DNA of 64,000 bases, from contig JAUSJG010000008.1 of assembly GCA_030647555.1 (NCBI GenBank), forward strand, positions 129,467-193,466, read 5' to 3'. Made by a program: the position numbers and the translations under genes. Numbering within the stretch: the first letter of the stretch is position 1; the number at the start of each line of letters is the position of its first letter. Origin of the DNA: a bacterium. GTDB lineage: Bacteria > Patescibacteriota > Andersenbacteria > UBA10190 > CAIZMI01. Below, piece by piece: positions 39,331 through 54,153 of the stretch. Below the pieces are notes generated by a model. The model was not told where the DNA came from, made no database searches, and saw only the letters and a list, made by a program, of their open reading frames with translations.

Positions 39331-39426
39331 ACGTCATTTGATAATTTATGATTTGAAAATTAATTGAAAATTGGTCATTGATAATTGAAATTTATTGTAT
39401 TCGGTGATTCAGTTCTATGTGCTATT

Positions 39427-40536
39427 ATGAAAAAAATAGCAATGAAAAAAACGCCTGATCTAATTTTGTTACTCGCCATCATCGCCCTTGTCTCCTTGGG
39501 CAGTTTAATGTTGGTGTCCGCATCATCTGTATTGGGGTTGGACTTGCACAATGATCCTTATTTCTTTGTTCGTCATCAATTGTATTACGGGATATTGCCC
39601 GGTTTGTTTTTACTTATTGTCACGATGTTTGTTCCATATACGTTTTGGCGACGTGCCGTTGTGCCAATTTTGGTTGGGGTGGTTATTCTTCTCTTGATGG
39701 TCTTTGTACCCCAGTTTCAGATGTCTTATGGTGGAGCGTCACGTTGGGTGCGTTTGGGTTTTATCTCCGTTCAACCTGCCGAATTTGCCAAACTCGCGGT
39801 TATTCTTTATTTGGCGGCATTGTTTTCCAGTCGTGAAGAGAAACATGGTCATGTGCATGATACACTGATTCCATTTTTAATTGTTGTTGGGCTGATTGGT
39901 TTTCTCATTATTAAACAACCGGATATAGGTACATTGGTGGTGGTTACTAGCGCGTCCTTGATTATTTATTATCTTGCCGGGGCAAGCTGGAAGCATCTTT
40001 GGATGGTGATTGGTGGTGGATTAGGGACTTTGATTGTTTTAATTCGTCTTGCGCCATATCGCATGGCGCGTTTTACCACCTTTCTTCATCCCGAGTTGGA
40101 TCCAAAGGGGATTGGCTACCAAGTCCACCAAGCATTGCTGGCAGTAGGGTCGGGTGGAATTTGGGGATTAGGCTTTGGAAGAAGTCGACAAAAGTTTCGT
40201 TATCTGCCGGAACCGGCGGGTGATTCAATCTTTGCCATTGCTTCCGAAGAATTGGGATTTTTGCGGATTAGTATCTTGTTGAGTCTGTATATTTTTATTA
40301 TTATTCGGGGTTATCAAATTGCGCGTAAGGCGCCGGATATGTTTAGTAAATTAGTGGCCGGCGGAATTACATCTTGGTTTTTTGTGCAAGCAGTTGTGCA
40401 CATTGGGGCGAATCTTTCGATCTTTCCCTTAACTGGCATTCCGTTACCACTCGTTTCTTATGGAGGATCGGCGATTGTGATAACGCTTGTGGGAGCGGGG
40501 ATACTGCTGAATATCTCACGATATTCGAACGATTAA
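39427..40536 (+). CDS. ftsW: SEDS-family peptidoglycan glycosyltransferase (FtsW/RodA)
   Basis: A polytopic ORF with the C-terminal ...PLTGIPLPLVSYGGSA... signature. Its position between mraY and murG supports ftsW. The start was trimmed to MKKIAMKK. Confidence 0.7.
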   Translation: MKKIAMKKTPDLILLLAIIALVSLGSLMLVSASSVLGLDLHNDPYFFVRHQLYYGILPGLFLLIVTMFVPYTFWRRAVVPILVGVVILLLMVFVPQFQMSYGGASRWVRLGFISVQPAEFAKLAVILYLAALFSSREEKHGHVHDTLIPFLIVVGLIGFLIIKQPDIGTLVVVTSASLIIYYLAGASWKHLWMVIGGGLGTLIVLIRLAPYRMARFTTFLHPELDPKGIGYQVHQALLAVGSGGIWGLGFGRSRQKFRYLPEPAGDSIFAIASEELGFLRISILLSLYIFIIIRGYQIARKAPDMFSKLVAGGITSWFFVQAVVHIGANLSIFPLTGIPLPLVSYGGSAIVITLVGAGILLNISRYSND

Positions 40537-40739: not shown

Positions 40740-41936
40740 ATGCGTATCGTTCTAACCGGTGGTGGCTCCGGTGGTCATTTGACGCCTTTGGTTTCGGTTG
40801 CCGATACCCTAAAGCGCATGTATCACGAAGGTGAGATTAGTTTTCCGGAAAGCCGAAATAGTGGCCTTGAAATTAGGTATGTTGGCGTGGTTACAGAAAT
40901 TGATAAGTCGATTCTGGAAAAAGCCGATATTCCATATGAACACATTCCATCGGGCAAAATTAGGCGTTATTTATCGGGCGCGCCGCTTACGGCAATGGAA
41001 ATGTTTGTTCAACTTCCATTCGGAATTTTGCGGGCTTTTTGGCGGATGTATATTTTGATGCCCGAAGTGGTTTTCAGTAAAGGTGGTTACGGATCAATTC
41101 CTGTTGTTATTGCGTCCTGGGTTTATCGGATTCCGATTTTAATGCACGAAACGGATATTGTGCCGGGATTATCTAATAAAAAATTATCGCGCTTTGCATC
41201 GGCGATTGTGGTGGGCTTCCGAAAAGCAGAACAATATTTTAAACAAGATCGGGTTTTTGTCGCCGGTACACCGTTGCGCGAAATCTTTTACAAATTACCG
41301 GACAGAGAAACAGCGCGAAGAGAATTACAATTACATGATCGCAAGCCGGTGTTGTTTGTAACTGGTGGAAGTCAGGGTGCGCAACGGATAAATAACGTGA
41401 TTTTAGAAATGCTGATTCGTGTGTTACCGGATTTTCAGGTGGTGCATCAAGTGGGGCAACTTAATTTGGAACCGGTACAGGAGTTTGTAAGAAGTACGCT
41501 GGGAAATTTTCCAGACATTAGTGATTATCACGTCTTGGGTTTTATCGACGAACGCACGATGGCGAATTGTTTTTCAGCCTCGGATCTTGTTGTTTCCAGG
41601 GCAGGTGGAACAACCCTGGCGGAATTAGCCGTGGCGGGGAAGCCATCTGTTTTAATTCCCTTGGGAGAGTCCGCTAATAATCACCAGTGGGAAAATGCCT
41701 ATTTCTATCGTGAGGCCGGTGCGGCGGTTGTATTAGACGAAAGCAATGTCTCGCCACCTTTGTTAGAAGCAACAATCCGTCGTGTCTTTCAACGTCAAAG
41801 TAATTTAGAATTAATGTCGTCTCGCGTCCGTGAGTTAGCCCGTCCATCCGCGTCGATAGATATAGCGCAATTATTGGTCCAAATGGGTCTTGGCTTCGTG
41901 CCAAGACGAAAATTGGAAGCAGTCAAGGAAAAGTAG
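40740..41936 (+). CDS. murG: UDP-GlcNAc:undecaprenyl-PP-MurNAc-pentapeptide GlcNAc transferase
   Basis: The N-terminus has RIVLTGGGSGGHLTPLVSVAD. The C-terminus has ...VTGGSQGAQRIN... and ...SRAGGTTLAELAVAGKPSVLIP.... Confidence 0.8.
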   Translation: MRIVLTGGGSGGHLTPLVSVADTLKRMYHEGEISFPESRNSGLEIRYVGVVTEIDKSILEKADIPYEHIPSGKIRRYLSGAPLTAMEMFVQLPFGILRAFWRMYILMPEVVFSKGGYGSIPVVIASWVYRIPILMHETDIVPGLSNKKLSRFASAIVVGFRKAEQYFKQDRVFVAGTPLREIFYKLPDRETARRELQLHDRKPVLFVTGGSQGAQRINNVILEMLIRVLPDFQVVHQVGQLNLEPVQEFVRSTLGNFPDISDYHVLGFIDERTMANCFSASDLVVSRAGGTTLAELAVAGKPSVLIPLGESANNHQWENAYFYREAGAAVVLDESNVSPPLLEATIRRVFQRQSNLELMSSRVRELARPSASIDIAQLLVQMGLGFVPRRKLEAVKEK

Positions 41937-42033
41937 CAAAGTCCGTCTTTGCGCCTGCCGGCCATAGCCTTGGCGACGGCTGGAGGCGTTTCAACGCCGA
42001 AGCAATCTCCCGTGGCGTGCTATAATATGCCAG

Positions 42034-42109
42034 TCGTGGGCATGCCAAGGTTGGGAGTTCAGGATTATCACCCAGATCTCGGGGGTTCGATTCCCCTCGT
42101 GTCCACGAT
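42034..42109 (+). other. tRNA-like fragment: canonical T-arm GGGGGTTCGATTCCCCT plus an 8-bp terminal pairing, but no complete cloverleaf
   Basis: The T-arm is at 42081-42097. gtcgtgg (42034-42040) pairs with ccacgat (42103-42109). No D-arm or anticodon arm could be built. caggattatcaccc (42058-42071) is complementary to ggtgataatcctg (42189-42201). Confidence 0.25.
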
Positions 42110-42228
42110 AAAAAAATAATTGTTTTATCACCAACTTTACTCACCAACCTATTGACAAGTTTTTAATTAGTGTGTACGTTTATTGCAGGTGATAATCCTG
42201 ATTCTCTCACTAAGGTGAGATTGACGAA

Positions 42229-42251
42229 AAGCCGCTTCAAGCGGTTTTTTG
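42229..42251 (+). terminator. intrinsic terminator gccgcttcaagcggc + TTTTTTG
   Basis: A GC hairpin followed by a U-tract. Confidence 0.55.
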
Positions 42252-42336
42252 TTTGAGTTAATAATGATAATCGATGAAGCTGGCAGATATTATTGGCTAG
42301 TAGTAGCCAATAATTAATTGTATAAATACACTACTC

Positions 42337-42365
42337 TTGACAATTTCCATTTTTGGGAGTATACT
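42337..42365 (+). promoter_or_regulatory. near-consensus sigma70 promoter TTGACA-N17-TATACT at the left edge of the GC-rich island
   Basis: ttgacaatttccatttttgggagtatact. Confidence 0.45.
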
Positions 42366-42371
42366 TATCTC

Positions 42372-42790
42372 TTAAATTAAAAAGCCAAAGCTCTGTACAC
42401 GATAAATCGCGCATAGCGCTTTGGCGAACAGGAGAGACCCATCCTTCGCTCATGAATGAGCTACGGAGGGCAAGGCGGATCGCAATTTCCACAATTGAAT
42501 AGACGAAGGGATTATGAGCAACAGCGACCTGGGCAAATATACCAGTAGTTCTCATAATCATCCTTTAAAAAGAGCACGGGGTTCTTCGGCGGCCCCTCCC
42601 TTTCGACAAAGGGAGGCCGGGAGGGATTCCGCGCTTCCGTCACTGCACATACTCCTGGCTCAAATTTATTTTATGCCGTATGCAGTATGCGCAGTGACGG
42701 GAAAAAATACCGGTGCTGTCCCGGTTAAATCTGTTTCGGTCGCGCATGACAGTAGCGACCAGTCGTCATAATCCGAAAAGGAAAAGACTC
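42372..42790 (+). ncRNA. candidate highly structured leader / ncRNA (about 420 nt)
   Basis: It carries four perfect hairpins in series: agccaaagc...gctttggcg, gattatgag...ctcataatc, cctccctttcgacaaagggagg and gtcactgcacatac...gtatgcgcagtgac. The 85-aa ORF track call at 42514 is low-complexity. Confidence 0.3.
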
Positions 42791-42991
42791 ATGACGACAA
42801 AGACCAAATTTCTGACCGTGGTGGCAGTGGGCCACCAGTATCGAACGCATGAACTGACCGGGGTTGCTGGCGAAGCGAAGGAAATCGTTCGCCAAGTGGC
42901 CAAACGCACGGATGCGTTTCGCCAGGAATATATCCTCCGGCGGTTGGTTACGCGCGAGCAACGGACGCTCGCACTGGCGACTACTCGATAA
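42791..42991 (+). CDS. hypothetical small basic protein (66 aa)
   Basis: An RBS (aaaaggaaaag) precedes the ATG. MTTKTKFLTVVAVGHQYRTHELTGVAGEAKEIVRQVAKR... Confidence 0.3.
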   Translation: MTTKTKFLTVVAVGHQYRTHELTGVAGEAKEIVRQVAKRTDAFRQEYILRRLVTREQRTLALATTR

Positions 42992-43083
42992 TCGTCGCCA
43001 CGAAAAAACCGACGGCTCTCTGTGGGTGTAGCTGTCGGTGATTAGTAGAAACACCCCTGATCAAAATTTACGGAAGACCAGAC

Positions 43084-43150
43084 ATCGCGTCTCGGTCTTC
43101 CTCCCATCAATGCCTAGTACACCGGCCTAAATTTATTTATTGCCGTTTTG
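43084..43150 (+). promoter_or_regulatory. conserved upstream element copy 1: inverted repeat CAATGCCTAGTACA...TGTACGAGGCATTG around CCGGCCTAAATTTATTTATTGCCG
   Basis: It is about 62 bp and nearly identical to 53081-53146. Confidence 0.55.
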
Positions 43151-43163
43151 TTGTACGAGGCAT

Positions 43164-43205
43164 TGACGGGAAAGTAGTTTTTTAGAGTCGACCAAACCGT
43201 CGCCA
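43164..43205 (+). promoter_or_regulatory. conserved 5'UTR copy 1 (GAGTCGACCAAACCGTCGCCATGGCGGGGAGGTCTTAACAA) with an embedded strong SD
   Basis: The same 42-mer, with 1-2 mismatches, lies at 52141-52182. Confidence 0.55.
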
Positions 43206-43239
43206 TGGCGGGGAGGTCTTAACAATTAGGAGAACAATC

Positions 43240-43551
43240 ATGGCAGGAACGTACAACGTGATCGTCGATGCCGCCGCCCCCGCCACGACCTTGAAAATCG
43301 GTTTTGGCAGTCCGGCCCAGAACGACCAGATCGTGAAGGATGCGGTCGCGGCCGTGAAGGCGCTCGGCTTGACCGGCGGGAAGCTGGTCAAGTTGAACGG
43401 GCCGGCTTCGTTGCCGGTGGCCGTCGCCATCGGGCACGAGGTGGCCCACCTGTTCGGGGCCGTCGCGGTGTTCGACCCGAAACTCGGGAACAAATACGTC
43501 GTGGTGGTGAGCCACGACCCCGATTTCGCGGTCGGTAGCGTCATCGAGTAG
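43240..43551 (+). CDS. island gene A: 103-aa protein resembling a degenerate (P-loop-less) copy of the NK-like domain of genes B and C
   Basis: LVKLNGPASLPVAVAIGHEVAHLFG aligns positionally with VILCGPPRSGKSCMRQGLKDAIKII of B. VVVVSHDPDFAVGSV resembles LVVVAEIHSDYNGAEDTV of B. The comparison was made by eye. Confidence 0.4.
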   Translation: MAGTYNVIVDAAAPATTLKIGFGSPAQNDQIVKDAVAAVKALGLTGGKLVKLNGPASLPVAVAIGHEVAHLFGAVAVFDPKLGNKYVVVVSHDPDFAVGSVIE

Positions 43552-43711
43552 GGTTCTTTCAGGCCAAATCATGGTTGATGCGGCCTAAATCGTACACGAA
43601 GGAGGTCCGAGTATGACGCTCGACCTCCTTCCTTTTCTTCAGAGCGCGACAAACGTTGTCGTGCGCTCAAGTAAAAGATTTTAAACCCGCCGCGGCGGGA
43701 AGGAGAAAATC

Positions 43712-44293
43712 ATGAAAGTCATACTTTGTGGTCCCCCGCGGAGCGGGAAGTCCTGCATGAGGCAGGGCTTAAAGGATGCGATTAAGATTATTCCGGGTGC
43801 ACCGTATCCGTATGTTATCACGGCGTGCCCGGACGGTGAGGGGGCTTGGTTCCAGGAAACTGTGAACCAGGACCCTGATTTGGCCAAGAGGTGCAAGGAT
43901 GCATACAAGGCCAAGTTCACGCCGGAATTTGTGCAGAGGATAGCGGATTCTGTGCAAAATTGCTCGCTACCGCTCACGCTCGTGGATATCGGTGGCATCC
44001 CGAGCGCGGAGAACGAGGCGATTTGCGCCTCGGCCACCCACGCCATTTTGTTGGCAGGCGACCTCGGCCGTTTGCCCGAGTGGCACGCGTTTTGCAAAAA
44101 ACTCGGGCTCGTTGTTGTTGCCGAGATCCACTCGGACTACAATGGGGCCGAGGACACCGTCCCCCAACTCGGCGAGGACGGCATCTATCGCGGTTCGGTT
44201 CACCATCTTGAACGAGGTGAACAGACCGCCGCCCGCCCGACGATTCGGGCGCTGGCCGAGATTCTCGTCGGGATGGTTACCGACAAGAATTGA
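43712..44293 (+). CDS. island gene B: small P-loop NTPase, nucleoside/polynucleotide-kinase-like (193 aa)
   Basis: Walker A MKVILCGPPRSGKS lies at the extreme N-terminus. The LTLVDIGG block is Walker-B-like. An RBS (ggaaggag) precedes the start. Confidence 0.55.
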   Translation: MKVILCGPPRSGKSCMRQGLKDAIKIIPGAPYPYVITACPDGEGAWFQETVNQDPDLAKRCKDAYKAKFTPEFVQRIADSVQNCSLPLTLVDIGGIPSAENEAICASATHAILLAGDLGRLPEWHAFCKKLGLVVVAEIHSDYNGAEDTVPQLGEDGIYRGSVHHLERGEQTAARPTIRALAEILVGMVTDKN

Positions 44294-44427
44294 TTTCTAA
44301 TCAACCAACGGTTGTGGGTTATCCTGTAAAACCCTCTTCTGATTCGAGAGTGTGTACTCTCGCTGATGACGCCGAAAGGCAGAAATCAGAAACTGAAATC
44401 AAAAAAAATTTTCGCGGAGGAGAACCG

Positions 44428-46122
44428 ATGCGAAGAGTAATTGTATGCGGGCCACCGCATTCGGGCAAGTCGGTGTTCCTGGCTAACCTGCAAAGGTTGT
44501 TGCCAGTTGAGCACCACATGCTCATCTTCGGTGCCCCCGATGGGGAGTGGCATTGGACCAACGGGGCCAACCAATCCCTCGTTCGCGAGACCCGCCAAAA
44601 GCGGAGTTTTTCGGATGACTGGTGCGACGGCATTCTTAATGCCATCGCGCAAGCCGAGCAACGGCTCGTTCTGGTTGACACCGGAGGAAAAAGACTCTCG
44701 CCGAACGACCGGATTTTCCGGGCGTGCGACGCCTTCATTATTCTCTCTTCTTCCAAGGAGGAGATAATTGAGTGGCGCCGCTTCGGCGAGGAAAACGGAT
44801 GCCTGTGCATTGCTGAATTGGATTCGGCGCTGCAAGGTGAAGATCAAATTTATCTGGACGCGAGCGATGGAATTCTCCGCGGACGGATAACTGGTCTGGA
44901 ACGGGGGCAGGAGATTGATTCCCCAGTTCTGGATGCAGTGGCAGGAAAACTTCGTAAAGTCATTGAGGTGAATGCCGAGATGACGGAAGCGGAGCTTCTG
45001 GCCAATATCAACGGGGCTAAGCTGGTTGACCACCTTGGGATCACGGATCGGACTGATCCTTACCTTGGTGTACGGCCATGGCACACGGCGCCGGCGTTGA
45101 AAATCACGGCCGTGGCGCGGAGGTTGGAAACGGTGCGGATTTGGAATGTCCGTGCCAGTTTTCTTTCGTGCGCGTTTGCGACAACACTGCCCGGCAAGGT
45201 GGAGCTCTTCGGAGTTTCCGATGGATATGTTCCATTGCCGAAGGTTGCGCCAAACGGCGACGGCGCGGGCGATCTGGCGTGGGAAGTCGCGGAATTTTCC
45301 GACTACACTTTGGTGGAGTATCGGAAAAACGGATTTTTCACAAAAGAGAAACTCGCCGATGTTGTGCCGCCGGTAGTGAACACCCGAAAGGGTGTTGTGC
45401 TGGCGACAGACGGTCCGCCGATCTGGCTGGACGCGACGATCGCAAGATCGTACGCGAAAGCCGGTGTGCCGTTTGTGGCTGTGTTTGTACCCGTTGAGTC
45501 GGGGCGAGTACAGCAGGACGGAACGCGGTGGGATGAGGCGCATCCGCAGGATGGGCCGTGCGTCGTTATTTATGGCGAAGCGGAAAAGGTGGGGGAAGTA
45601 ATTTCCGTGCCGATCTCGCTTCTGAAGTGGAATGGCGGCGGACGGCAGTGGCAACTGGGTTCCGGTGAGGTCGTAAAAGACCGACCGCATAGCCACGTGG
45701 CGACACATCCGTCGGTTTTGCCACTTGTCGGCGAAGCGCTTGCGCGAATTGAGTCCGCCGGGCGCGACAATATTGTGGAGGAAATAGACTTCGGACGGAC
45801 GGTGGGTGAGATGATTTGCGTCGAAACAAGTAATGACGACGAGATCGTTTTTGCACAACGTCAGAACCGAAAAGGACTGACGCGGTTTGTGAAAAACCGG
45901 CAACCCACGTTGTGTAACAGTGTTACGGTTTGTCTCACGAAAGCGGAAGGAAACGGCCATTACGTTTTGGCCACCGCTTTTGTGGGAAAGAGAGCGCCGG
46001 CAGAGCCGTGGGACGTGGAATGGGCGACGGAGCAATCCGTCCCGTTCTGGAACACCCACGCGCTTATCTGGGGCGCGGAAACTTTTTTGGCGGACACTGA
46101 AACGAATCGGTGTCCGTGGTAA
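44428..46122 (+). CDS. island gene C: N-terminal NK-like P-loop domain (paralogue of B) fused to an uncharacterised C-terminal region of about 380 aa
   Basis: MRRVIVCGPPHSGKSV, APDGEWHW (compare CPDGEGAW in B) and RLVLVDTGG are present. The start was trimmed to the ATG preceded by ggaggag; the ORF track start at 44290 lies inside the 3' end of gene B. Confidence 0.55.
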   Translation: MRRVIVCGPPHSGKSVFLANLQRLLPVEHHMLIFGAPDGEWHWTNGANQSLVRETRQKRSFSDDWCDGILNAIAQAEQRLVLVDTGGKRLSPNDRIFRACDAFIILSSSKEEIIEWRRFGEENGCLCIAELDSALQGEDQIYLDASDGILRGRITGLERGQEIDSPVLDAVAGKLRKVIEVNAEMTEAELLANINGAKLVDHLGITDRTDPYLGVRPWHTAPALKITAVARRLETVRIWNVRASFLSCAFATTLPGKVELFGVSDGYVPLPKVAPNGDGAGDLAWEVAEFSDYTLVEYRKNGFFTKEKLADVVPPVVNTRKGVVLATDGPPIWLDATIARSYAKAGVPFVAVFVPVESGRVQQDGTRWDEAHPQDGPCVVIYGEAEKVGEVISVPISLLKWNGGGRQWQLGSGEVVKDRPHSHVATHPSVLPLVGEALARIESAGRDNIVEEIDFGRTVGEMICVETSNDDEIVFAQRQNRKGLTRFVKNRQPTLCNSVTVCLTKAEGNGHYVLATAFVGKRAPAEPWDVEWATEQSVPFWNTHALIWGAETFLADTETNRCPW

Positions 46123-46132
46123 GGAACAAAAA

Positions 46133-46564
46133 ATGAAGACGTATGCAGTGGCAGTGGATGGTGGGCGGACGGGACACGCGGTGGCAACCCTGCGGGCCGA
46201 GATCAACCTCGGTCTGAAAAAGGGCTACGCGGGATTCCTTCAGGAAAAGCAGGAGGTCATTGACTTCCTGAAGGACCTGTACCGCACGGCAGTCGCGGCG
46301 GGACGGAACTACGTCCCGGTCTGCATCCAGCAGACGGAGATCGTCTACGCGTACCAGACTGGCGATGGTCCGGTAGCGGACGCCGAACCGGCATTGACCC
46401 TTTTTTCCGACAAGTCGCCACTTTATGCGGCGGACATGTCGGACGATCAGTGGAAGGCCGCCGTCGAGGAATTGGCAGCCGCGTTGGCTGATCGGTTCCA
46501 ACAGTTCCGGGTGTACGTGTCGTACATCCAAGTGGAGGTGAAGATCCTCCAGCAGGTGAAGTAG
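46133..46564 (+). CDS. island gene D: hypothetical 143-aa protein
   Basis: An RBS (aaggaac) precedes the ATG. MKTYAVAVDGGRTGHAVATL weakly resembles the N-terminus of gene A (MAGTYNVIVDAAAPATT). Confidence 0.4.
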   Translation: MKTYAVAVDGGRTGHAVATLRAEINLGLKKGYAGFLQEKQEVIDFLKDLYRTAVAAGRNYVPVCIQQTEIVYAYQTGDGPVADAEPALTLFSDKSPLYAADMSDDQWKAAVEELAAALADRFQQFRVYVSYIQVEVKILQQVK

Positions 46565-46588
46565 TACTTCTCCTGCGAATCGATCTTC

Positions 46589-46628
46589 GGCAAGTCCACG
46601 CATTGCGCGCGGACTTGCCACTTTTTTA
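46589..46628 (+). terminator. intrinsic terminator ggcaagtccacgcattgcgcgcggacttgcc + ACTTTTTT, followed by a second hairpin gtgttcgcgatgcgcgaacac
   Basis: A 9-bp GC stem followed by a U-tract. Confidence 0.55.
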
Positions 46629-46706
46629 AAGTTTATCAGTGGAAGTGTTCGCGATGCGCGAACACCTGATGGGCTTTTAGAAGTTTTTTTGAAAAGGAGA
46701 CACAGG

Positions 46707-47054
46707 GTGAAAAAAATCCTGTGGATGTCGCGCCACCGGCCGACCGCGAGGCAGATTAATGCCTTGCGCCAGATGCATGGCGCGGACGCGGTGGTGGAAC
46801 AGGAGGACCGTCCGTTTGACGACGCGCGAGAAATCGTGTGCCGGTACAGGCGAGATGGTTACGACGACATGGTGGTCGTCGCTCCGCTTTCAGTAATCGC
46901 GGTTTTGTGCCAGGAAGGCATTAGACCGCTTTGGTCCGAAGCCACCGAGGAAAACGATCCGAGAAAGATCGAATTTCGCGGCGCGCGCGGGCAAGGGTAT
47001 CGTTTCGTAAGGTTCCGCCGCATTAAGTGCGTGCGGGTTGAATTCGAAGAATAA
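46707..47054 (+). CDS. island gene E: 115-aa protein, a possible second degenerate NK-like paralogue
   Basis: There is a GTG start with an RBS (aaaggaga). KKILWMSRHRPTARQINALRQM aligns with KVILCGPPRSGKSCMRQGLKDA, but the GKS is lost. This is by-eye inference. Confidence 0.35.
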   Translation: MKKILWMSRHRPTARQINALRQMHGADAVVEQEDRPFDDAREIVCRYRRDGYDDMVVVAPLSVIAVLCQEGIRPLWSEATEENDPRKIEFRGARGQGYRFVRFRRIKCVRVEFEE

Positions 47055-47064
47055 GGAAAATGAG

Positions 47065-48279
47065 ATGAACGAAAAAATGAAAGCGGCGATTGCTCTGACG
47101 TCGAAGGTTCAGAGTGTAATGCGGGATGTGGAGACTCGGCACATTGGGCGCGCAGATGTGGTGCAAGCCACGTTTTTGGCGCTCGTGTCGGGGCGACCCG
47201 CGTTTTTCCTCGGCAGTCCCGGAACCGACAAAACCGGGGCGGTGCAGGACATGGCCAGGCAAATTGCCGGCGCCGTGTTCTATGATGTGTTGATGCCGAC
47301 CATCGTGTCGGTTGAGCAACTCCTTGTTGAGTCCACCTCGATCGAGGAAGCGTCCACAGCGGGAGGCGGAAAGTCAATCCGTACCCGTGACACGCTGGGA
47401 CGCGCCGCGTTGGCGCACTTGCTCTTTGCTGACGAGATCTGGAAAGCGGAACCCCGTGTTCTGCAGACCTTGATCGACTTGAGCAAGGGCGACGGGGTGC
47501 GTCACGAAGGCCAGATGGTGGCAACACCGTTGCTGGCTTTTCTCGCAGCATCGAACGAGTTGCCGGAAGCCGAGGGCAACCTCGGAGCGATCTGGTCTCG
47601 GATGACCATCCGCGTGGTGGTAAATCCGTTGGATCGCGCGGGCAAAAATGAGCTGGTGAAAGCCCGGCTCGCTCGCGCTACCGGAGGTAGCAAGACGGCC
47701 ACGCAGACGCTGACGCTCGCAGACATTGAAACTTTGCGAACGGCGCGAAAATACGTCGATATCCCGCAAGGCGTCATTGACGCAGTGTTGGATGTCTACC
47801 AGGAACTTGTTGACGACAAGTCAACGGACTTTTCCTGGGCGTGGGCGGATGACCGGCGGTTCGGTCGCGTGTTCGACGTCATGCAGGCGAAAGCTCTGCT
47901 TGACGGACGGACAGTGGTCAGCAAGCAGGATTTGGCGGTGCTGGAGTGGTTGCTCTGGGACGTTCCCGAGCACATTCCAGTCGTCAAAGCGAAGCTTGCT
48001 CCGTACTGTCGGACGCCGTTTTCCGACGCGCAGGAGGCGGTAGATGCACTGCTCACTCCGGGCGGAGTGGTCGAGTTGGTGCGAAACGGGGACAGGGTCA
48101 AGGGTGTTCAGGCTATCACGCAGTGTGAGGCCGCCCTGACCGAGCTGAAACGTCTCAAGGGGGAGGCGGACAGCGGGACGTCGTCTAGAATTGCCGACTT
48201 GGTAAAACAAGTCGAGGCAGTTAAAGATGACGTGATCGCAGTCGTGACCGGGGCCAAAATGCCCCAAAGGGGAAACTAA
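47065..48279 (+). CDS. MoxR-like AAA+ ATPase with a non-canonical Walker A (GSPGTDKT)
   Basis: VVQATFLALVSGRPAFFLGSPGTDKTG is the MoxR N-terminus. LLFADEIWKAEPRVLQTLIDL matches the Walker B / sensor region hhhhDE(I)(N/W)(R/K)A. The start was trimmed to MNEKMKAAIA after aaggaaaa. Confidence 0.7.
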   Translation: MNEKMKAAIALTSKVQSVMRDVETRHIGRADVVQATFLALVSGRPAFFLGSPGTDKTGAVQDMARQIAGAVFYDVLMPTIVSVEQLLVESTSIEEASTAGGGKSIRTRDTLGRAALAHLLFADEIWKAEPRVLQTLIDLSKGDGVRHEGQMVATPLLAFLAASNELPEAEGNLGAIWSRMTIRVVVNPLDRAGKNELVKARLARATGGSKTATQTLTLADIETLRTARKYVDIPQGVIDAVLDVYQELVDDKSTDFSWAWADDRRFGRVFDVMQAKALLDGRTVVSKQDLAVLEWLLWDVPEHIPVVKAKLAPYCRTPFSDAQEAVDALLTPGGVVELVRNGDRVKGVQAITQCEAALTELKRLKGEADSGTSSRIADLVKQVEAVKDDVIAVVTGAKMPQRGN

Positions 48280-48280
48280 G

Positions 48281-49957
48281 ATGGCCGAGAAGAAAGTCCG
48301 GCCGCTCACCCGGCAGGAGCTGATGCCCCAGCTGGTGACGGACGCGGATGCCTTCACGGCCCTGCGTTACATCCGTCACCGTGAGCAAATGCCGGCATTA
48401 CCCGAGCTTGCGGAAAAAGGACAGGAAGTCCTACCCGGAAGCGAAGGCGTGTTGGCGGATTTGTATGACGCGTTGTGGGATCCGGAGCCGAGCCTCAAGG
48501 AAGAGGTGGCGCCGGATCGGGAGTATTGGAAAAAACTCCTGGGCCAAACAATTGAAACGGCGGCCTTTCAGGAGTTGCACGCGGCTACACAGCTTAAGGA
48601 TCTGCAATCGGTCCTTGGGACAATCGCGATGGGCGAATCAGTCCTCGCGTTGGTATCAAAAAAGGACCGGGATGAACTCCAAAAGTTGAAAGAGGCGACG
48701 CAGGAAGCGGAAGACGTGGCGGACGAGGCGGGGCAGGCCGAAGCAAACGCGCAAGTGGCGCAAATGCTGGCGGATGCTGCTGCAGAACAGTCCGCGGGCG
48801 CGGGACAATCAGGTCAGCCGCAAACCGGTAAGCCTTCGGGCAAACCGGGAAGTGGCAAGGGACAGATGAGTCCCGACCAAGCGCGGAAAATCGCCAACGA
48901 GCTGGCGAAGACGGCGGCAAAAGCGCAAGCCGATGCCAAAGCCGCGCGGGAACAGGCCGATGAGAAACGGCTCAACGCGGAAATTCAGGCCGAGGATTTG
49001 TTGGGACAACCCGGCAGTGACAAGGCTGAGAAAAAACTGCGTGAGTTGACGCGAATCGGTTTGCAGGCCATCAAAGGTGCTCAAGCGAAGGTGGAGGAAG
49101 TTTCCGAAACCATCGAAGCTTGGGGGTTGGAGGATGGCGAGCTGACGCGCCAAGGGATTCCCGAAGCGTTGGCGCTTTTGCAACGCATGAAGCGAAGCGA
49201 AGCGCTGAAAAAGTTCGCCGGCCTTTTGGGTCGCCTGCGCAAAATCGCGGCGCGGAAAGCGCGTGCCAAAGTTTCGGGAGAAGGAGTGCGGGTCACGGTT
49301 CCGGAAACGGGTCGCGATATTCGCCGCGCTCACACCTCCGAATTGGTTGCACTTACTTCACCAGCCCTTCGTGTTAAAGGATTAACACGTTGGGCACGCG
49401 GTGAACTGCGGTTGGTAGGCCAGCGCGCCAAGCAAAAGCTTGGCCACGGTCCGGTGATCGTCTGTGAAGACGGATCCGGTTCGATGGATGGAGCCAAGCA
49501 ACAGTGGGCGAAAGGTGTGACGTTGTCACTCGCCCACTACGCGAAGATCCAAAAGCGGTCGTTCGGATGGGTGCTTTTTGACTCTGCTGTAAAGCAGGCG
49601 AAGGGTTACCCGCAAGGACGATTGTCTGCCGAGCAGATGCTGGAGCTGGCCGAGTCGCGGGCCGGCGGCGGAACGAATTTCGAAGTTCCGCTTCGCAAAG
49701 CCATGGAGATGATTCAGAAAGAAGGCCTCAAAAAAGCCGACATCTGTTTTATCACCGATGGCGAATGCGCGGTGAGCGATGAGTTTCTCCGGGAATTTCT
49801 GGCGGTCAAGAAGACGCACGAGGTCAACGTATTCACGGTTTTATGTGATGTTGGCTCGACGTCCGATGCGACCGTACGGCAGTTCTCGGATCGAGTGGTT
49901 CGCGTTTCCAGCTTCACGGCAGAAGAAGCGGAAAGTGCGGTGTTTGGTTCTTTGTAG
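48281..49957 (+). CDS. von Willebrand factor A (VWA) domain protein with a complete MIDAS; the N-terminal region plus a low-complexity acidic/Ala-Gln linker give a CobT/ViaA-like architecture
   Basis: VIVCEDGSGSMDG is DxSxS. ...GGTNFE supplies the Thr and ...FITDGEC the Asp. The start codon abuts the MoxR stop, consistent with translational coupling. Confidence 0.7.
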   Translation: MAEKKVRPLTRQELMPQLVTDADAFTALRYIRHREQMPALPELAEKGQEVLPGSEGVLADLYDALWDPEPSLKEEVAPDREYWKKLLGQTIETAAFQELHAATQLKDLQSVLGTIAMGESVLALVSKKDRDELQKLKEATQEAEDVADEAGQAEANAQVAQMLADAAAEQSAGAGQSGQPQTGKPSGKPGSGKGQMSPDQARKIANELAKTAAKAQADAKAAREQADEKRLNAEIQAEDLLGQPGSDKAEKKLRELTRIGLQAIKGAQAKVEEVSETIEAWGLEDGELTRQGIPEALALLQRMKRSEALKKFAGLLGRLRKIAARKARAKVSGEGVRVTVPETGRDIRRAHTSELVALTSPALRVKGLTRWARGELRLVGQRAKQKLGHGPVIVCEDGSGSMDGAKQQWAKGVTLSLAHYAKIQKRSFGWVLFDSAVKQAKGYPQGRLSAEQMLELAESRAGGGTNFEVPLRKAMEMIQKEGLKKADICFITDGECAVSDEFLREFLAVKKTHEVNVFTVLCDVGSTSDATVRQFSDRVVRVSSFTAEEAESAVFGSL

Positions 49958-49981
49958 CAGTAATTCTGCCACCGTTTGGGG

Positions 49982-50014
49982 AGTCCGGTTTTTGACTCCC
50001 CTCTTTTTTCTTCC
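49982..50014 (+). terminator. intrinsic terminator ggggagtccggtttttgactcccc + TCTTTTTTC
   Basis: An 8-bp stem followed by a U-tract. Confidence 0.55.
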
Positions 50015-50076
50015 TTTCCAGCTTCGTGTTGGAAGGAAAGAATTGAAGTAAACACAAAAACAAAAGGAGGCCTACC

Positions 50077-52038
50077 ATGGCCGAAGAAAAGTTGATTGTT
50101 TTGTTGGAAACCAGGGCGGGCAAGAATCCTGGCGAAGCGGTTGCCACCCACAACAGGCGGCAAATCGTCTTTTTGCCCCGAGGAACAACGGTTGGAGTCA
50201 ATGTCCGCGTCGTACTCGAAGAGATTACGACTAAAAAGGACAGCAACGGCCGTTCGATGTATCGCGGCGTACCCGCGCCAGTTGAGTACGTTGACAAGTG
50301 GAAGATCAACGGGGACGGAAGAGTTTCCAAAATCACCGTCTCTAAGGATTGGCTCGGCGGCGAACGGGAGGAAGGCGTAATTGAAACGCGTCAACCCGCC
50401 ACGCGTGACGGGTCACCGTGGACACAGACCGAAAGCACAGTAAGTTGGGGTGCAACTCTGGCAAACTGTGCCGTTGATCTCGTGGACACAACGACTACTC
50501 CGTTGGAAACGGAGTATGTCGAAGCGGGTCAACTCGTCTGGAGAAAGACGAGTGAACGAGTGGGGAAAAATACGCGTCGCGTTACCGTCACGGGTATTCG
50601 CGTAACCGCGTTAGATGCCACAACGTGGCAACCTGCCTATCCGCCAGACTGGCAGATTTCAGCGTCTGTGGCGTACGATGGCGGAACAGTTTCGACCAGC
50701 GTAACGTGGGCGAACGCGCCCAAAGAAACGCGGGACGAGATCGAGAACCGTTATTGTGTGTGCGCTTGCAGTCGACAGCGATACGATGTTCAGAATTCCG
50801 ATGGTTACGCCAAGTGCGAAAAGTGTCGGGAGAAAGAACACTGCGTGCGCTGTGGTAAGCAGGTCAAGGTTGCGGTCATTGCTGACCGCCTGATCTGCGC
50901 GAACTGCAGACCGTATGAAGATCGGGAACAGCTCATTAATCGGGTTGTGCCTAATCAGACACGGCAGGAGTTGGCGCAACAAGCGACACGGCTTTTGGCT
51001 GGAAATGTTGTGCCACGGGAGGCGGGAGAAGCGATTGTTCGCTCCACGCTCGGTCAAGTTGAACCGGATTGGAAACGTAATGGCGTAGTCGAGAAGTGTG
51101 TTGGGTACGCCTGGTATTACTTCTGCGAGGAGGGAGTCTACGGTTCCAAGTTTCCGTCGGCAGCGCTGCAGATTCTGCAGGGACTTCCGCAGGCGACCGG
51201 TAACGGCCTTGTTGACCTGGTTTCTTGGGTGGCTGGTCGTCAAAAACAGGAGGAGTGTGAGCGTTGTGGTGACTTCTTCTGTGAAAGTCAGGCTGGGAGA
51301 TTCTTCACTCCTTCGCCGAGCGAAAGTGAATTGCAAAACCTTTGTGTAGCAGTTCGGCTTCGCGGGTCGGAGGCAGATCGTATCGAGGCCCTACAGAAGT
51401 ATCGGGAACTGGTCGAAAAGCTAGGTTCCGATGCTAAGCAGGTAAGCGAAATCGCGGAAATCCTAAACTCGGATGAGCAGGACTACGCAGCAGTTCTTGT
51501 CAAAATTCACAACCTCGGAAAAGATCTGGCTTCGGCTGAACGAGGAGAAATTCTCGTGAATTTCGGCGGTCACTTTCGCATGATGGGCTACACTGGCCAG
51601 GCTCAATATTGGGTCATTCGGCCAGATGGTTCAGAACGCGAGCCTGACGAAGTTGATTACCGGAAACGGTACACTTCGGAAGGTAATAAAAAGTGGTGGC
51701 TGGTTAGTTCGGATGAGTTGGCGATTTCGTGGTTTAAGGGCACTACTGCCTCGAGCCATCAATGTGTCGTCGACAAACTTCCGGCTGGTGGGTGCACGCC
51801 CGAGCAACTGGCAACTGTTGCTCAACTCGAGCAAGAGCTTTCGGCTCGGTTCGAGGGCTCTCATGGTTGCAGTGGTGATCCGAGTCCTAACATCGGTGAG
51901 GGATGGAACCTCAAGTCGAAGGATGAACCGGACGTGGATGAACCCTACGAAATCGGTCCGCCCGCTCCAGCCAACACGTTGGATGTCCACAAACTTTTCG
52001 GCGGGCAGGTGCGAAAAAAACCCGCCGGTCGAAAGTAG
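50077..52038 (+). CDS. island gene F: 653-aa protein with a TRAM/OB-like N-terminus and two Cys-rich zinc-ribbon clusters
   Basis: The RBS is aaaaggagg. GEAVATHNRRQIVFLPRGTTVGVNVRVVLEEI follows a TRAM-like pattern. CVCACSRQRYD...CEKCREKEHCVRCGKQ...CANCRP and CERCGDFFCE are Cys clusters. Confidence 0.5.
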   Translation: MAEEKLIVLLETRAGKNPGEAVATHNRRQIVFLPRGTTVGVNVRVVLEEITTKKDSNGRSMYRGVPAPVEYVDKWKINGDGRVSKITVSKDWLGGEREEGVIETRQPATRDGSPWTQTESTVSWGATLANCAVDLVDTTTTPLETEYVEAGQLVWRKTSERVGKNTRRVTVTGIRVTALDATTWQPAYPPDWQISASVAYDGGTVSTSVTWANAPKETRDEIENRYCVCACSRQRYDVQNSDGYAKCEKCREKEHCVRCGKQVKVAVIADRLICANCRPYEDREQLINRVVPNQTRQELAQQATRLLAGNVVPREAGEAIVRSTLGQVEPDWKRNGVVEKCVGYAWYYFCEEGVYGSKFPSAALQILQGLPQATGNGLVDLVSWVAGRQKQEECERCGDFFCESQAGRFFTPSPSESELQNLCVAVRLRGSEADRIEALQKYRELVEKLGSDAKQVSEIAEILNSDEQDYAAVLVKIHNLGKDLASAERGEILVNFGGHFRMMGYTGQAQYWVIRPDGSEREPDEVDYRKRYTSEGNKKWWLVSSDELAISWFKGTTASSHQCVVDKLPAGGCTPEQLATVAQLEQELSARFEGSHGCSGDPSPNIGEGWNLKSKDEPDVDEPYEIGPPAPANTLDVHKLFGGQVRKKPAGRK

Positions 52039-52054
52039 TTTCACTGTTCTTTTT

Positions 52055-52090
52055 GGGGTCGTTGTTGGATACAACGACCCCTCTTTTCTC
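52055..52090 (+). terminator. intrinsic terminator ggggtcgttgttggatacaacgacccc + TCTTTTCTC
   Basis: An 11-bp stem. The same hairpin recurs at 52993-53026. Confidence 0.55.
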
Positions 52091-52140
52091 TAGCTCATGA
52101 GTGCTAGTCGCACTTGGTGAGCTGGAGTGAAAGTTTTTTC

Positions 52141-52182
52141 GGAGTCGACCAACCCGTCGCCATGGCGGGGAGGTCTTAACAA
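52141..52182 (+). promoter_or_regulatory. conserved 5'UTR copy 2 (GGAGTCGACCAACCCGTCGCCATGGCGGGGAGGTCTTAACAA)
   Basis: Matches 43164-43205. Confidence 0.55.
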
Positions 52183-52195
52183 CGGGAGAAAAAAC

Positions 52196-52948
52196 ATGGC
52201 GCGTTTCATTATGGTGGTGGTGATGATGATGGTGGTGGTGACCGCGCGGGCCGAGACGTTGACCGGAGAAAAGGTCGACGTTAGGATCGACGTGGAAGGC
52301 GTGTCCACGCGGTTTTTTGAGCCGCGAGATATCGCGGGTACGGTGGACGGAGGGTCGCAGGATGCGACCTATCGGTTCCGATACACCCTTCTCCAGCCCG
52401 GCGATGCGTATTCGATCGCGGTGCAATCACGGTCGAATGGTCTTCGGTACGGCATTGGAGTCGCCGTCGATGGCCGCTGTATCCTGACCGGCATGAAGGT
52501 GCCGGCGACGGTACAAATGGCCTCGAGTTGGCCGAACATGTACGTCGTTGGTGGCCGCGGTGGCGAGTTTCGCGGCTGGCGGGAGGATGCCGGAAACATC
52601 CGGCGGTTCGTGGTTTCCAGTGAGGACCGGTCGCTGGCGGCGACGCTTTGGAACGATCGATCCGCAACGGGGACGATCGTTGTCTCCATCTTCCGAGAAA
52701 CCCCATCGCAGGAGCCCATGATGAAGGGCGAGCGCGGGGTAAAAGGGCTCGGGACGGCCGCCGGCGAGCGCGAGGAATCGCGCGTCGTGTCGGTAGACTT
52801 TACATCTCGCCCGGTCGCGTACGAAGTCTTCGTACTTCGGTATGCGTCGAAACCCGAGTTGAAGAAGCTCGGGGTGTGGACGGAGGAGGCAGTCCCGAAC
52901 CGGTTCTGGCCGACGGAGAAACCGTTCATCGGCCGAATCCCCGAGTAG
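52196..52948 (+). CDS. island gene G: secreted protein (signal peptide MARFIMVVVMMMVVVTARA, about 250 aa), function unknown
   Basis: It has a hydrophobic N-terminus with an ARA cleavage-like site. The start was trimmed to the Met after gggagaaaaaac. Confidence 0.5.
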   Translation: MARFIMVVVMMMVVVTARAETLTGEKVDVRIDVEGVSTRFFEPRDIAGTVDGGSQDATYRFRYTLLQPGDAYSIAVQSRSNGLRYGIGVAVDGRCILTGMKVPATVQMASSWPNMYVVGGRGGEFRGWREDAGNIRRFVVSSEDRSLAATLWNDRSATGTIVVSIFRETPSQEPMMKGERGVKGLGTAAGEREESRVVSVDFTSRPVAYEVFVLRYASKPELKKLGVWTEEAVPNRFWPTEKPFIGRIPE

Positions 52949-52992
52949 TAGTTTTTCCCCGAAAAGGATTTCGGGACGAGTGTTCTTTGTCC

Positions 52993-53026
52993 GGGGTCGT
53001 TGTTGGAAACAACGACCCCGCTTTTC
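52993..53026 (+). terminator. intrinsic terminator ggggtcgttgttggaaacaacgacccc + GCTTTTC
   Basis: Near-identical to the hairpin at 52055. Confidence 0.55.
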
Positions 53027-53080
53027 TAAGGTTCATCGGAAACAGTTCGGTGGGTCTTAACGAAAGAACAAAATCTTTTC

Positions 53081-53146
53081 CATCAATGCCTAGTACACCG
53101 GCCTAAATTTATTTATTGCCGACAGTTGTACGAGGCATTGACGGGA
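53081..53146 (+). promoter_or_regulatory. conserved upstream inverted-repeat element copy 2
   Basis: catcaatgcctagtacaccggcctaaatttatttattgccgacagttgtacgaggcattgacggga. Confidence 0.55.
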
Positions 53147-53191
53147 CAAGAAAAAATGAGGTCGTTCTTAACATAACAAAGGGGACAAAAA

Positions 53192-53536
53192 ATGACGCGC
53201 ATGGAACGTGTCGTTGATTGGTTTTTGGGTGTGTATTTTCCGTTCATTACTATTTTTTCTGGCTTGTTTTTCGTGGTGTGGGTATATTTGACCACCAGGC
53301 CGGTACACGATTTTCCGGAATGGGGTTTTGTCTTGTTTATCTGTTGGGTGGTGGTGGCTGTGCCGGCTCTTCCTTTGATGATCCTCACGATAATTCAGGA
53401 AAAAATTCGGCGGATGAAAGATGAGGCCCAGTTTTATCGGGACTGCTACGTCATCACTTTTTGTGATGAGGGTGGCATCACCGAAGAGTCGGCCGTCGAA
53501 ACTGGAAATCCCTACCAAAGTCCGATTTATGAGTGA
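53192..53536 (+). CDS. island gene H: small 2-TM membrane protein (114 aa)
   Basis: The RBS is aaaggggac. There are two hydrophobic helices, then a soluble tail ending CDEGGITEESAVETG. Confidence 0.45.
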   Translation: MTRMERVVDWFLGVYFPFITIFSGLFFVVWVYLTTRPVHDFPEWGFVLFICWVVVAVPALPLMILTIIQEKIRRMKDEAQFYRDCYVITFCDEGGITEESAVETGNPYQSPIYE

Positions 53537-53585
53537 ACGGATTTTGGTAATTCATTTTCTCTACATATTTTTTGCGTCTCGAGTA

Positions 53586-53624
53586 CCACGTCATAACTCG
53601 CTGAGTTCTTACGTGGTTTTTTTA
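53586..53624 (+). terminator. intrinsic terminator ccacgtcataactcgctgagttcttacgtgg + TTTTTTT
   Basis: A hairpin followed by a 7-U tract. GC content drops immediately after it. Confidence 0.55.
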
Positions 53625-53689
53625 GAGCCCATCAATTTTTGGTGGTCTGTAATTAAAGTATATGTATAGATATATTGATACAATAAAAA

Positions 53690-53736
53690 CGGAGATTGCT
53701 TCGCCTCGCTGTTGCGATGGCTCGCAAAGACTGCGT
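53690..53736. repeat. short dispersed repeat CGGAGATTGCTTCG-N17-CTCGCAAAGAC, intergenic copy
   Basis: The copy at 54889-54933 shares both ends and lies inside murC. Confidence 0.45.
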
Positions 53737-53769
53737 TACACAGTCGCTAAAAGGCTATTGAGTCTAAAA

Positions 53770-54046
53770 ATCCCCCGTCGCTACCTCCTTCGCTAAAGCT
53801 TCGGAGGTCAAGAAAGCTTCGGGGGACGCAGTGAGAATCAGACCCTGGGAGGTCGGTTACGATCCGCCCGCCCATTTTAATAAATGGGCGAGGTTCAATT
53901 TTCTCTCCTGACCGTGTCGCCTAAAAAGCACGCGGGAATCAAACAGGCACCTCGGTCCGTATCATTTCTCACTGCGCCCACCGTAGCTCATCAGAGCGAA
54001 GGAGGGTTAACGACTCGATAGCCTTTTGGCGGTTTTTTTGTGCGTG
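53770..54046 (+). ncRNA. candidate structured leader / attenuator RNA upstream of murC (about 280 nt, ending in an intrinsic terminator)
   Basis: There are long-range pairings: cgtcgctacctccttcgct with agcgaaggagggttaacgac, and gacgcagtgagaa with ttctcactgcg. The terminal gccttttggc + GGTTTTTTT hairpin lies about 100 nt before the murC ATG. Confidence 0.3.
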
Positions 54047-54135
54047 AATGATGAATTATGATATATGATTTATGAATATCGACGGTTAGTTTCTCATAAA
54101 TCATCATTCATAAATCATTATTCATTTTGTGAATG
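54041..54135. repeat. AATGATGA-family AT-rich inverted repeat (gtgaatgatgaattatgat...atcatcattcataaatcattattcat)
   Basis: Read directly. Related copies at 10741, 19075 and 33896. Confidence 0.4.
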
Positions 54136-54153
54136 TTCAGCTATGATCAATAA

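Follow-up and report, generated by a model that had tools for sequence, protein, structure and literature searches.

A conserved, predicted structured RNA leader with a repeated hairpin at the head of a Csx3 island in Patescibacteria

Introduction

In phage lambda (N/nut) and phage HK022 (put), a promoter-proximal RNA hairpin serves as a signal for processive antitermination; lambda N is the small, arginine-rich product of the first gene, and boxB measures 15 nucleotides (nt). The RNase III sites of phage T7 are signals for RNA processing between cistrons, and the PeSL elements of T4-type phages are short stem-loop repeats that flank variable genes and carry an early promoter. Here we describe a locus with likenesses to each of these, in a 64-kb stretch of DNA (the window) from a bacterium of the Andersenbacteria lineage of Patescibacteriota. 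Its subject is a leader at positions 42372–42790 on the + strand and a hairpin, hairpin B, that forms part of it and recurs further along the same island. The Patescibacteria (candidate phyla radiation, CPR) hold a large share of bacterial diversity, yet their gene regulation and non-coding RNAs are almost unstudied. The island is of the defence type, with Csx3, AAA and MoxR–VWA proteins, and is headed by what would be an undescribed RNA of ~400 nt whose fold is supported by covariation. In NTP-dependent conflict systems of this kind, Csx3 has been described as an effector domain (PMC7159879).

Our preferred reading, to which we give roughly even odds, is that the leader belongs to an undescribed family of structured, cis-acting 5′ leaders that use a repeated intercistronic hairpin as a signal and gate the first gene. 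A reading of this DNA made earlier from the letters alone (the sequence-only reading) had proposed a regulatory leader or riboregulator. That was the right general class, given that a conserved, non-coding, structured RNA of the transcribed strand heads the island.

Fold and conservation of the leader

The leader has a minimum free energy of -160.7 kcal/mol, against -116.4 ± 5.5 kcal/mol in dinucleotide shuffles (z = -8.0; 0 of 100 shuffles folded as well). It holds four perfect inverted repeats, where shuffles hold 0.22 on average and two at most: GCCAAAGC/GCTTTGGC (42384–42425, 8 bp), GATTATGAG/CTCATAATC (42510–42559, 9 bp), CCTCCCTTT/AAAGGGAGG (42595–42616, 9 bp) and CCGTCACTGC/GCAGTGACGG (42637–42700, 10 bp). 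The full fold comprises eight helices, H1–H8, and the same helices were predicted independently in the window and in contig L036, which carries a complete homologous leader. The sequence-only reading had counted four hairpins with stems of 9–14 bp. The four perfect inverted repeats stand; their stems measure 8–10 bp, the extended imperfect helices 12–20 bp, and the helices number eight, not four. One of the four, hairpin B, belongs to a repeated element that had been missed.

A third, more distant copy of the leader lies directly after murG in the lineage of contigs L059–L063, which was recovered from several samples and has a 91% identical MurG. In L059, a palindrome and promoter shared with the window are followed by ~310 nt of unrelated 5′ leader and then by the conserved core; all contigs of this lineage end within the first hairpin B. 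A covariance model (R1) made from the window and L036 sequences scored 191 bits on L036 and 50 bits on L059 (E ~1e-10), with nothing comparable elsewhere (below 19 bits) in the 169 kb of compared sequence.

Covariation across homologues had been named in the sequence-only reading as a check. Differences between the window and L036 touch 10 of 182 paired columns, with all affected pairs (7/7) still paired, compared with 54 of 150 unpaired columns. When the three lineages are taken together, pairing holds in 95.4% of cells, and 15 of the 51 core pairs are changed on both sides and kept paired; this number was reached by 0 of 500 shuffles, and slid registers gave 0–3. Identity between the window and L036 is 81% in the leader core and 70% in the adjoining gene, which encodes a 66-residue protein. 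H4 folds at -39.1 kcal/mol on the + strand and at -30.1 kcal/mol on the - strand, with 5 G.U pairs in its 11-bp outer stem, and the whole consensus holds 8–11 G.U pairs and no A.C pairs, which argues that the core is an RNA of the transcribed strand. As judged from these sequence comparisons, the leader is clearly an evolutionarily conserved, non-coding, folded RNA under selection.

The Rfam scan that had also been proposed places the leader in no described family. Rfam 15 gave no match at gathering score in the whole window, and at E <= 10 across 41900–43300 the leader overlaps only chance microRNA and small-RNA matches, at 13–17 bits against gathering scores of 36–79.

The helices differ in how they have evolved. 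H1 (42384–42425), with a CCAAAGC/GCUUUGG stem, lies in the lineage-variable 5′ part; comparison of the window with L036 shows three of its pairs changed on both sides, and it does not occur in L059, whose 5′ leader part differs. The conserved motif GGAUCGCAAUUUCCACAAUUGAAUAGACGAAGG (42477–42509) is mostly unpaired and near-invariant in the window, L036 and L059. It is followed by H3 (42505–42566), whose stem sequence is wholly turned over (GAUUAUGAG, GUUAUCUAAA, UGCGUAAUAGG) around an invariant tip, ACCUGGG-NAAAYAUA-CCAG; in its main helix, 9 of 12 pairs are changed on both sides across the three lineages. H4 (42572–42636) has the tip CCUCCCUUU-CGAC-AAAGGGAGG and an outer stem rich in G.U pairs. 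L059 keeps the same H4 architecture, with a replaced outer stem and a pyrimidine/purine tip (CUCUCCCCUU/AAGGGGAGA). H5 (42637–42700; z = -7.2) is the first copy of hairpin B. In H6 (42709–42725) and H7 (42738–42760), the window and L036 have identical stems and differ by substitution in the loops only; the H7 loop holds CAUGAC, a duplicate of the start-codon context.

H8, predicted in both the window and L036, pairs GUCGUCAU (42762–42769) with AUGACGAC (42791–42798), which contains the start codon of the first gene, and the Shine–Dalgarno sequence AAAAGGAAAAG (42776–42786) sits in its loop. The sequence-only reading had a different hairpin, the CCUCC hairpin, sequestering a Shine–Dalgarno-like sequence. 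No start codon or open reading frame (ORF) follows the AAAGGGAGG arm of that hairpin, so it is not a hidden ribosome-binding site; it is the conserved pyrimidine/purine hairpin at the H4 tip, and the true start codon of the first gene is predicted to be sequestered by 42762–42769 instead. The leader as a whole can be viewed as modular. Lineage-variable 5′ hairpins (H1 and H2) would precede a conserved core made of the UUCCACAAUUGAAUA motif, H3 and H4, after which come one hairpin B of ~70 nt and the 3′ helices H6–H8.

Promoter and putative operator

A sigma-70-type promoter, TTGACA-17-TATACT (42337–42365, + strand), matches the consensus at 11 of 12 positions; the sequence-only reading had spoken of a consensus promoter. 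It is the only strong promoter match found by consensus scan across 41900–54200, and its predicted transcription start is at ~42372. The homologous promoter in L059 reads TTGACA-17-TATTAT. A perfect palindrome, ATTATTGGCTA-N4-TAGCCAATAAT (42289–42314), lies 22 nt upstream of the -35 hexamer, and L059 keeps a TTATTGGCT...AGCCAATAA palindrome (~11283–11308) before its promoter. From its position and conservation, the palindrome is probably an operator.

Coding status of the leader and of the first gene

An 85-residue ORF (42514–42771) overlaps the leader, with its ATG inside H3. In L036, this ATG reads ATC and is followed by TAA; eight indel columns amount to six frame-breaking events of 1–2 nt, and substitutions fall 12/12/17 by codon position. 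The ORF has no family match and no counterpart in L059. No ORF is conserved on either strand of the leader, those of the minus strand being likewise frameshifted. With its start lost, its frame broken and no codon periodicity, the 85-residue ORF is not coding on this comparison, which agrees with the earlier statement that the leader contains no credible ORF.

The first gene (42791–42991, + strand) behaves differently in the same alignment with L036. By codon position it differs at 11/10/39 sites, and the codon differences are synonymous in 30 cases and non-synonymous in 15; by this pattern it is a real gene. It encodes the 66-residue protein, which is arginine-rich and an orphan: a single non-identical relative was found in 5.8 billion proteins, at 77% identity, and a profile search of 1.84 billion representatives returned the same lone relative plus spurious matches to long repetitive proteins. 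That relative is encoded on two short ENA contigs, L035 and L036. The protein has no match in Pfam, PHROGs, PADLOC, NCBIfam or PDB, and an AlphaFold model of one long helix (predicted local distance difference test score, pLDDT, of 86) is uninformative.

Hairpin B and its copies

Model R2 finds exactly three copies of hairpin B in the window, all on the + strand and all 45–90 nt upstream of a start codon. Copy 1 is H5 of the leader. Copy 2 (43102–43171) is placed 69 nt before the start codon of Csx3 and is directly preceded by a further hairpin, hairpin A (GGAAGACC...GGUCUUCC; 43072–43101). Copy 3 (53078–53146) follows the terminator at 52992–53030 and lies 46 nt upstream of the ORF for a 114-residue protein. 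The copies share the stem base CC.UCA.UGC / GCA.UGA.GG, the loop YYAAAUU...UUU and a trailing GGGAAA, and their middle and apical stems vary in a compensating manner (CACUG/CAGUG versus CAAUG/CAUUG; UGGC/GCCG versus CGAC/GUCG). Copies 2 and 3, which share 94% identity, lie in direct orientation on either side of a 10-kb cargo; the Logan contig L001 spans exactly the stretch from copy 2 to copy 3.

In L035, the gene for the 66-residue protein is followed by hairpins A and B, 95% identical to the window element. The homology with the window stops right after TGACGGGAAA, the 3′ end of hairpin B. Beyond it, L035 has a five-codon ORF, 370 unrelated nt and another copy, where the window has Csx3 instead. 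Leader, first gene and hairpin B are thus shared while the cargo differs, which points to a constant module with variable cargo.

Searches beyond these relatives gave no further copies. The hairpin B pattern had 33 matches over genome contigs, all due to chance and none with a hairpin; metagenome contigs scanned with GGCYYAAATTTATTTWWTGCCG gave 9 matches, all due to chance; viral contigs scanned with hairpin and leader motifs gave 0, and the leader had no blastn match among phage records. In seven related Csx3 loci, blastn, R1 and R2 turned up homologues of neither the leader nor hairpin B, which indicates that these elements do not travel with Csx3.

Some minor features accompany the copies. 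Mini-ORFs of five to six codons lie between hairpin B and the next gene (MAGRS*, MRSFLT* and MKKKF*; 43204–43221 and 53158–53178 in the window, 433–450 in L035), and a GAGGTC(GT)TCTTAAC motif recurs downstream of copies 2 and 3. A T7-type promoter at the 3′ end of hairpin B was considered and rejected as chance: it matches 14 of 23 positions in copy 2 and 10 of 23 in copy 1, and there is no phage-type RNA polymerase.

Hammerheads in related Csx3 operons

In other Patescibacteria, type III hammerheads lie between the cistrons of Csx3 operons on five contigs: L047 (positions 1760, 2398 and 4429), L050 (10383), L053 (5068), L055 (1041) and L056 (10340). A hammerhead of L047 scores 49.5 bits against an Rfam gathering score of 48.5; the others were found at 33–39 bits or by match to the core pattern. 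Related Csx3 loci also carry hairpins of 20–25 bp just upstream of start codons. Hammerheads and long hairpins at equivalent intercistronic sites suggest that RNA processing between cistrons is normal in this neighbourhood. The window itself has 0 matches to the hammerhead core CTGATGA-N6-30-CGAAA and no Rfam hammerhead match. We found no published account of hammerheads or structured RNAs in the Csx3 loci of Patescibacteria.

The hammerheads in Csx3 loci often adjoin a divergent gene for a TrmB-family regulator. Long gaps without a called gene separate the TrmB-family gene from Csx3 in L056 (8243–9966, 1.7 kb) and L054 (3602–4308, 0.7 kb); they show no similarity to the window leader and may hold further structured RNAs.

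Interpretation

Under the preferred reading, the leader would be transcribed from the promoter at 42337–42365 as the 5′ untranslated region of the first gene, from which no terminator separates it. In its default fold, H8 would restrain translation of the 66-residue protein; we infer this gating from the predicted pairing. Hairpin B would be a shared RNA signal for one trans-acting factor, found also in front of the 10-kb Csx3/AAA/MoxR/VWA unit and in front of the final membrane-protein gene. The best candidates for the factor would be the co-inherited arginine-rich 66-residue protein or a host double-strand RNase, which might process or stabilise the downstream messages or permit read-through of the five intrinsic terminators of the island. 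These five strong terminators stand against a single strong promoter by consensus scan. Terminators without further strong promoters, together with the hammerheads of the related operons, favour a post-transcriptional role for hairpin B.

Several described systems offer partial analogies. As in lambda N/nut, a hairpin precedes a small arginine-rich first gene and is repeated at later units, among several intrinsic terminators, and hairpin B copies lie upstream of the five terminators, a placement compatible with an antitermination signal. Unlike boxB with its 15 nt, however, hairpin B measures ~70 nt, no boxA- or boxB-like sequence was seen to accompany it, and the 66-residue protein has no detectable similarity to N; the sole boxA-like string seen by eye (GCTCTTTTTAAAGG, 42562–42575) is on the wrong strand. 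The T7 RNase III sites and the hammerheads of Csx3 operons may be closer analogues in placement, as irregular conserved hairpins between cistrons, tens of nt before the next start codon, although the window lacks the CUGAUGA...GAAA core of the hammerheads. By analogy with PeSL elements, the repeats could mediate module shuffling by homologous recombination; in contrast to them, hairpin B has no promoter match in or beside it (no sigma-70 promoter was seen inside or just after it, by eye or by consensus scan), and the host is a CPR bacterium rather than a phage. As in translational riboregulators and RNA thermometers, the region of the AUG is paired in H8 with a complement upstream of it, whereas the ~330 nt of further conserved structure upstream exceed what such elements need.

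Several points weigh against the preferred reading. The covariation reflects few events, in three lineages of which L059 is cut within hairpin B, with an alignment fitted to the model. Covariation gives no support to H8, which is invariant and has one coding strand. The 66-residue protein has no recognisable RNA-binding fold. Internal promoters invisible to a simple consensus scan could explain expression past the terminators. Finally, hairpin B is 3–6 kcal/mol more stable on the - strand, where A.C mismatches become G.U pairs, which fits a DNA or antisense role as well as an RNA role on the + strand.

This strand preference would be expected if hairpin B, and with it part of the leader, were a DNA recombination site delimiting mobile cassettes in the manner of integron attC sites or of integrase-less attC clusters (CALINs), with promoter and leader as a Pc/attI entry and a folded single strand, probably the bottom one, as substrate. 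Like attC sites, the copies are imperfect palindromes of 60–75 nt that bound exchangeable modules, downstream of a single strong promoter; folding is more favourable on the bottom strand, and copy 1 is unlike copies 2 and 3, as attI is unlike attC. The window and L035 share the element and part exactly at its 3′ end, with different cargo beyond; near-identical copies in direct orientation flank the 10-kb cargo, and the assemblies of several samples break within the element. Ordinary homologous recombination at a shared regulatory element would yield the same breakpoints, however. The stem bases read CCGTCAC...GTGACGG (copy 1) and CCATCAA...TTGACGG (copies 2 and 3), not RYYYAAC/GTTRRRY, so that the R″/R′ motifs are absent. 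No IntI or other integrase or recombinase occurs among the scanned island ORFs (the search covered the island and not the rest of the genome; CALINs do not require IntI), and one 'cassette' would be a 10-kb multi-gene unit with its own terminators. The non-repeated, covarying and + strand-specific core (H3 and H4) would also be left unexplained, and we regard this explanation as doubtful. That the palindromes are functionless debris of elements like miniature inverted-repeat transposable elements (MITEs) might be suggested by the repetition of one hairpin and by the gain and loss of 5′ hairpins between lineages; it is highly improbable in view of the compensatory changes, the invariant loops and an evolution slower than that of the neighbouring gene.

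Other readings keep the leader as an RNA and assign it a different task. A ligand-sensing riboswitch, in which binding opens H8 and turns translation on, would account for the conserved sequence and structure, including invariant unpaired motifs, for the start codon held in a 3′ helix that resembles an expression platform and for the decoy CAUGAC in the H7 loop; with a Csx3 ring nuclease in the cargo, a nucleotide second messenger would be a possible ligand. In the consensus fold, however, independent hairpins follow one another, and neither a multi-helix junction nor a pseudoknot is conserved. Different lineages have different sequence in the 5′ third of the leader, Rfam riboswitches give no match at E <= 10, and in the relative the leader occurs without linkage to Csx3 cargo. 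We consider a riboswitch quite unlikely. We judge it equally improbable that the leader (or else hairpin B together with its flanking sequence) is a previously undescribed self-cleaving ribozyme or a dedicated nuclease-processing site that takes the place of hammerheads and cuts a polycistronic RNA into units with protected ends. The five related loci have type III hammerheads at equivalent intergenic sites where the window has none, and hairpin B is an interrupted duplex of ~20 bp with internal loops, much like the RNase III sites of phage T7; but positional resemblance is not homology, no known ribozyme class matches even at E <= 10, and no catalytic core is identifiable. A combined and more specific proposal, that hairpin B and the core form a new class of processing or antitermination signal, either a self-cleaving ribozyme or the recognition site of the 66-residue protein, replacing type III hammerheads in this CPR lineage, is likewise unlikely; it would make the element a portable 'expression adaptor' by which unrelated cargo cassettes can be plugged in behind one promoter. 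A free-standing trans-acting or guide-like non-coding RNA, perhaps the RNA partner of the 66-residue protein, is suggested by the long conserved RNA beside a small basic orphan protein, always co-inherited. It is very unlikely, since no terminator precedes the gene and since, in RNAduplex, the pairing of the conserved single-stranded motif and of the H3 loop with other non-coding regions of the island did not exceed that of shuffles. The processed guide-like RNA of the sequence-only reading fares no better: for CRISPR RNA and its tracrRNA, omega RNA or bridge RNA, no Cas, TnpB/IscB or IS110 domain, effector nuclease or recombinase occurs in the scanned island ORFs, no CRISPR array in the window and no guide family among the Rfam matches.

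As a processing, antitermination or recombination signal alike, the hairpin would show how reduced genomes express and exchange multi-gene defence cargo from one entry point, and it would also give a compact RNA part. Its immediate reach is limited by a family known so far from three lineages.

Genomic setting of the island

The leader marks the left edge of a 12-kb insert that splits murG from murC within the cell-wall (dcw) cluster. FtsW (39385–40536) and MurG (40740–41936) lie on the left, MurC (54154–55572) and then MurB on the right. The two genes are adjacent in relatives with an 80% identical MurG (L064–L066; spacing 30 nt) and an 87% identical MurG (L067; spacing 165 nt), and G+C content rises from ~43% outside the insert to 55–60% inside it, roughly from 42500 to 53000. 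The leader's description as an 'island entry' in the sequence-only reading is borne out by both.

All island genes are on the + strand. The first gene is followed by Csx3 (43240–43551), an AAA protein (43712–44293) that matches the C-terminal half of PADLOC 'Csx3-AAA', an AAA–Csx3 fusion (44290–46122), two small proteins, a MoxR protein of the MoxR–vWA ternary type (47038–48279), a VWA protein (48281–49957), proteins of 653 and 273 residues without matches and, as the last gene, the 114-residue membrane protein (53192–53536). Csx3, the fusion, MoxR and VWA were assigned by domain and family scans. Close relatives of the island Csx3 are labelled Pacebacteria, Parcubacteria or Patescibacteria. 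Among the listed island ORFs (42514–53536), searches of Pfam, NCBIfam, PADLOC and PHROGs found no recombinase, reverse transcriptase, Cas effector or TnpB/IscB.

The five intrinsic terminators lie in intergenic regions of the island, at 43598–43640, 46589–46631, 49978–50011, 52055–52091 and 52992–53030. The last two, which follow the genes for the 653- and 273-residue proteins, are nearly identical (GGGGTCGTTGTTGGA(T/A)ACAACGACCCC, then a T-run) and make up a second small repeat family within the island.

Each end of the insert carries a copy of an imperfect direct repeat, ATAGCCTT(TT)GGCG (41961–41972 and 54021–54034), of which the uninterrupted murG–murC spacer of the 87% relative has a single copy (L067, 1561–1574). 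The repeat may be an insertion-site duplication, though no integrase is present. The ~76 nt after murG (41937–42012) resemble, in inverted orientation, a stretch within a glycosyltransferase gene of the 91% relative (L059, 3406–3510, - strand), with 86% identity over 36 nt, which hints at a past rearrangement at the junction.

Other candidate RNA elements

A second non-coding unit of ~350 nt (53690–54043, + strand) occupies the right edge of the insert, directly before murC. It has no Rfam match at E <= 1. It folds at -160 kcal/mol, with a helix joining its 5′ and 3′ ends, a T-run after it and an extended -10 element (TGATACAAT) upstream.

Left of the leader, a 71-nt tRNA-like element (42038–42108, + strand) has a 7-bp acceptor stem (GGGCAUG/CGUGUCC), a T-arm GGGGGUUCGAUUCCCCU and an extended -10 element (TGCTATAAT) upstream. 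It scores 26 bits on the Rfam transfer-messenger RNA model, against a gathering score of 47, and is not called by ARAGORN. The L059 lineage has neither this element nor the short unit at 42188–42253 that closes with a terminator (42229–42253). The central loop of the tRNA-like element (42059–42072) is perfectly complementary over 14 nt to 42188–42201, the start of that short unit.

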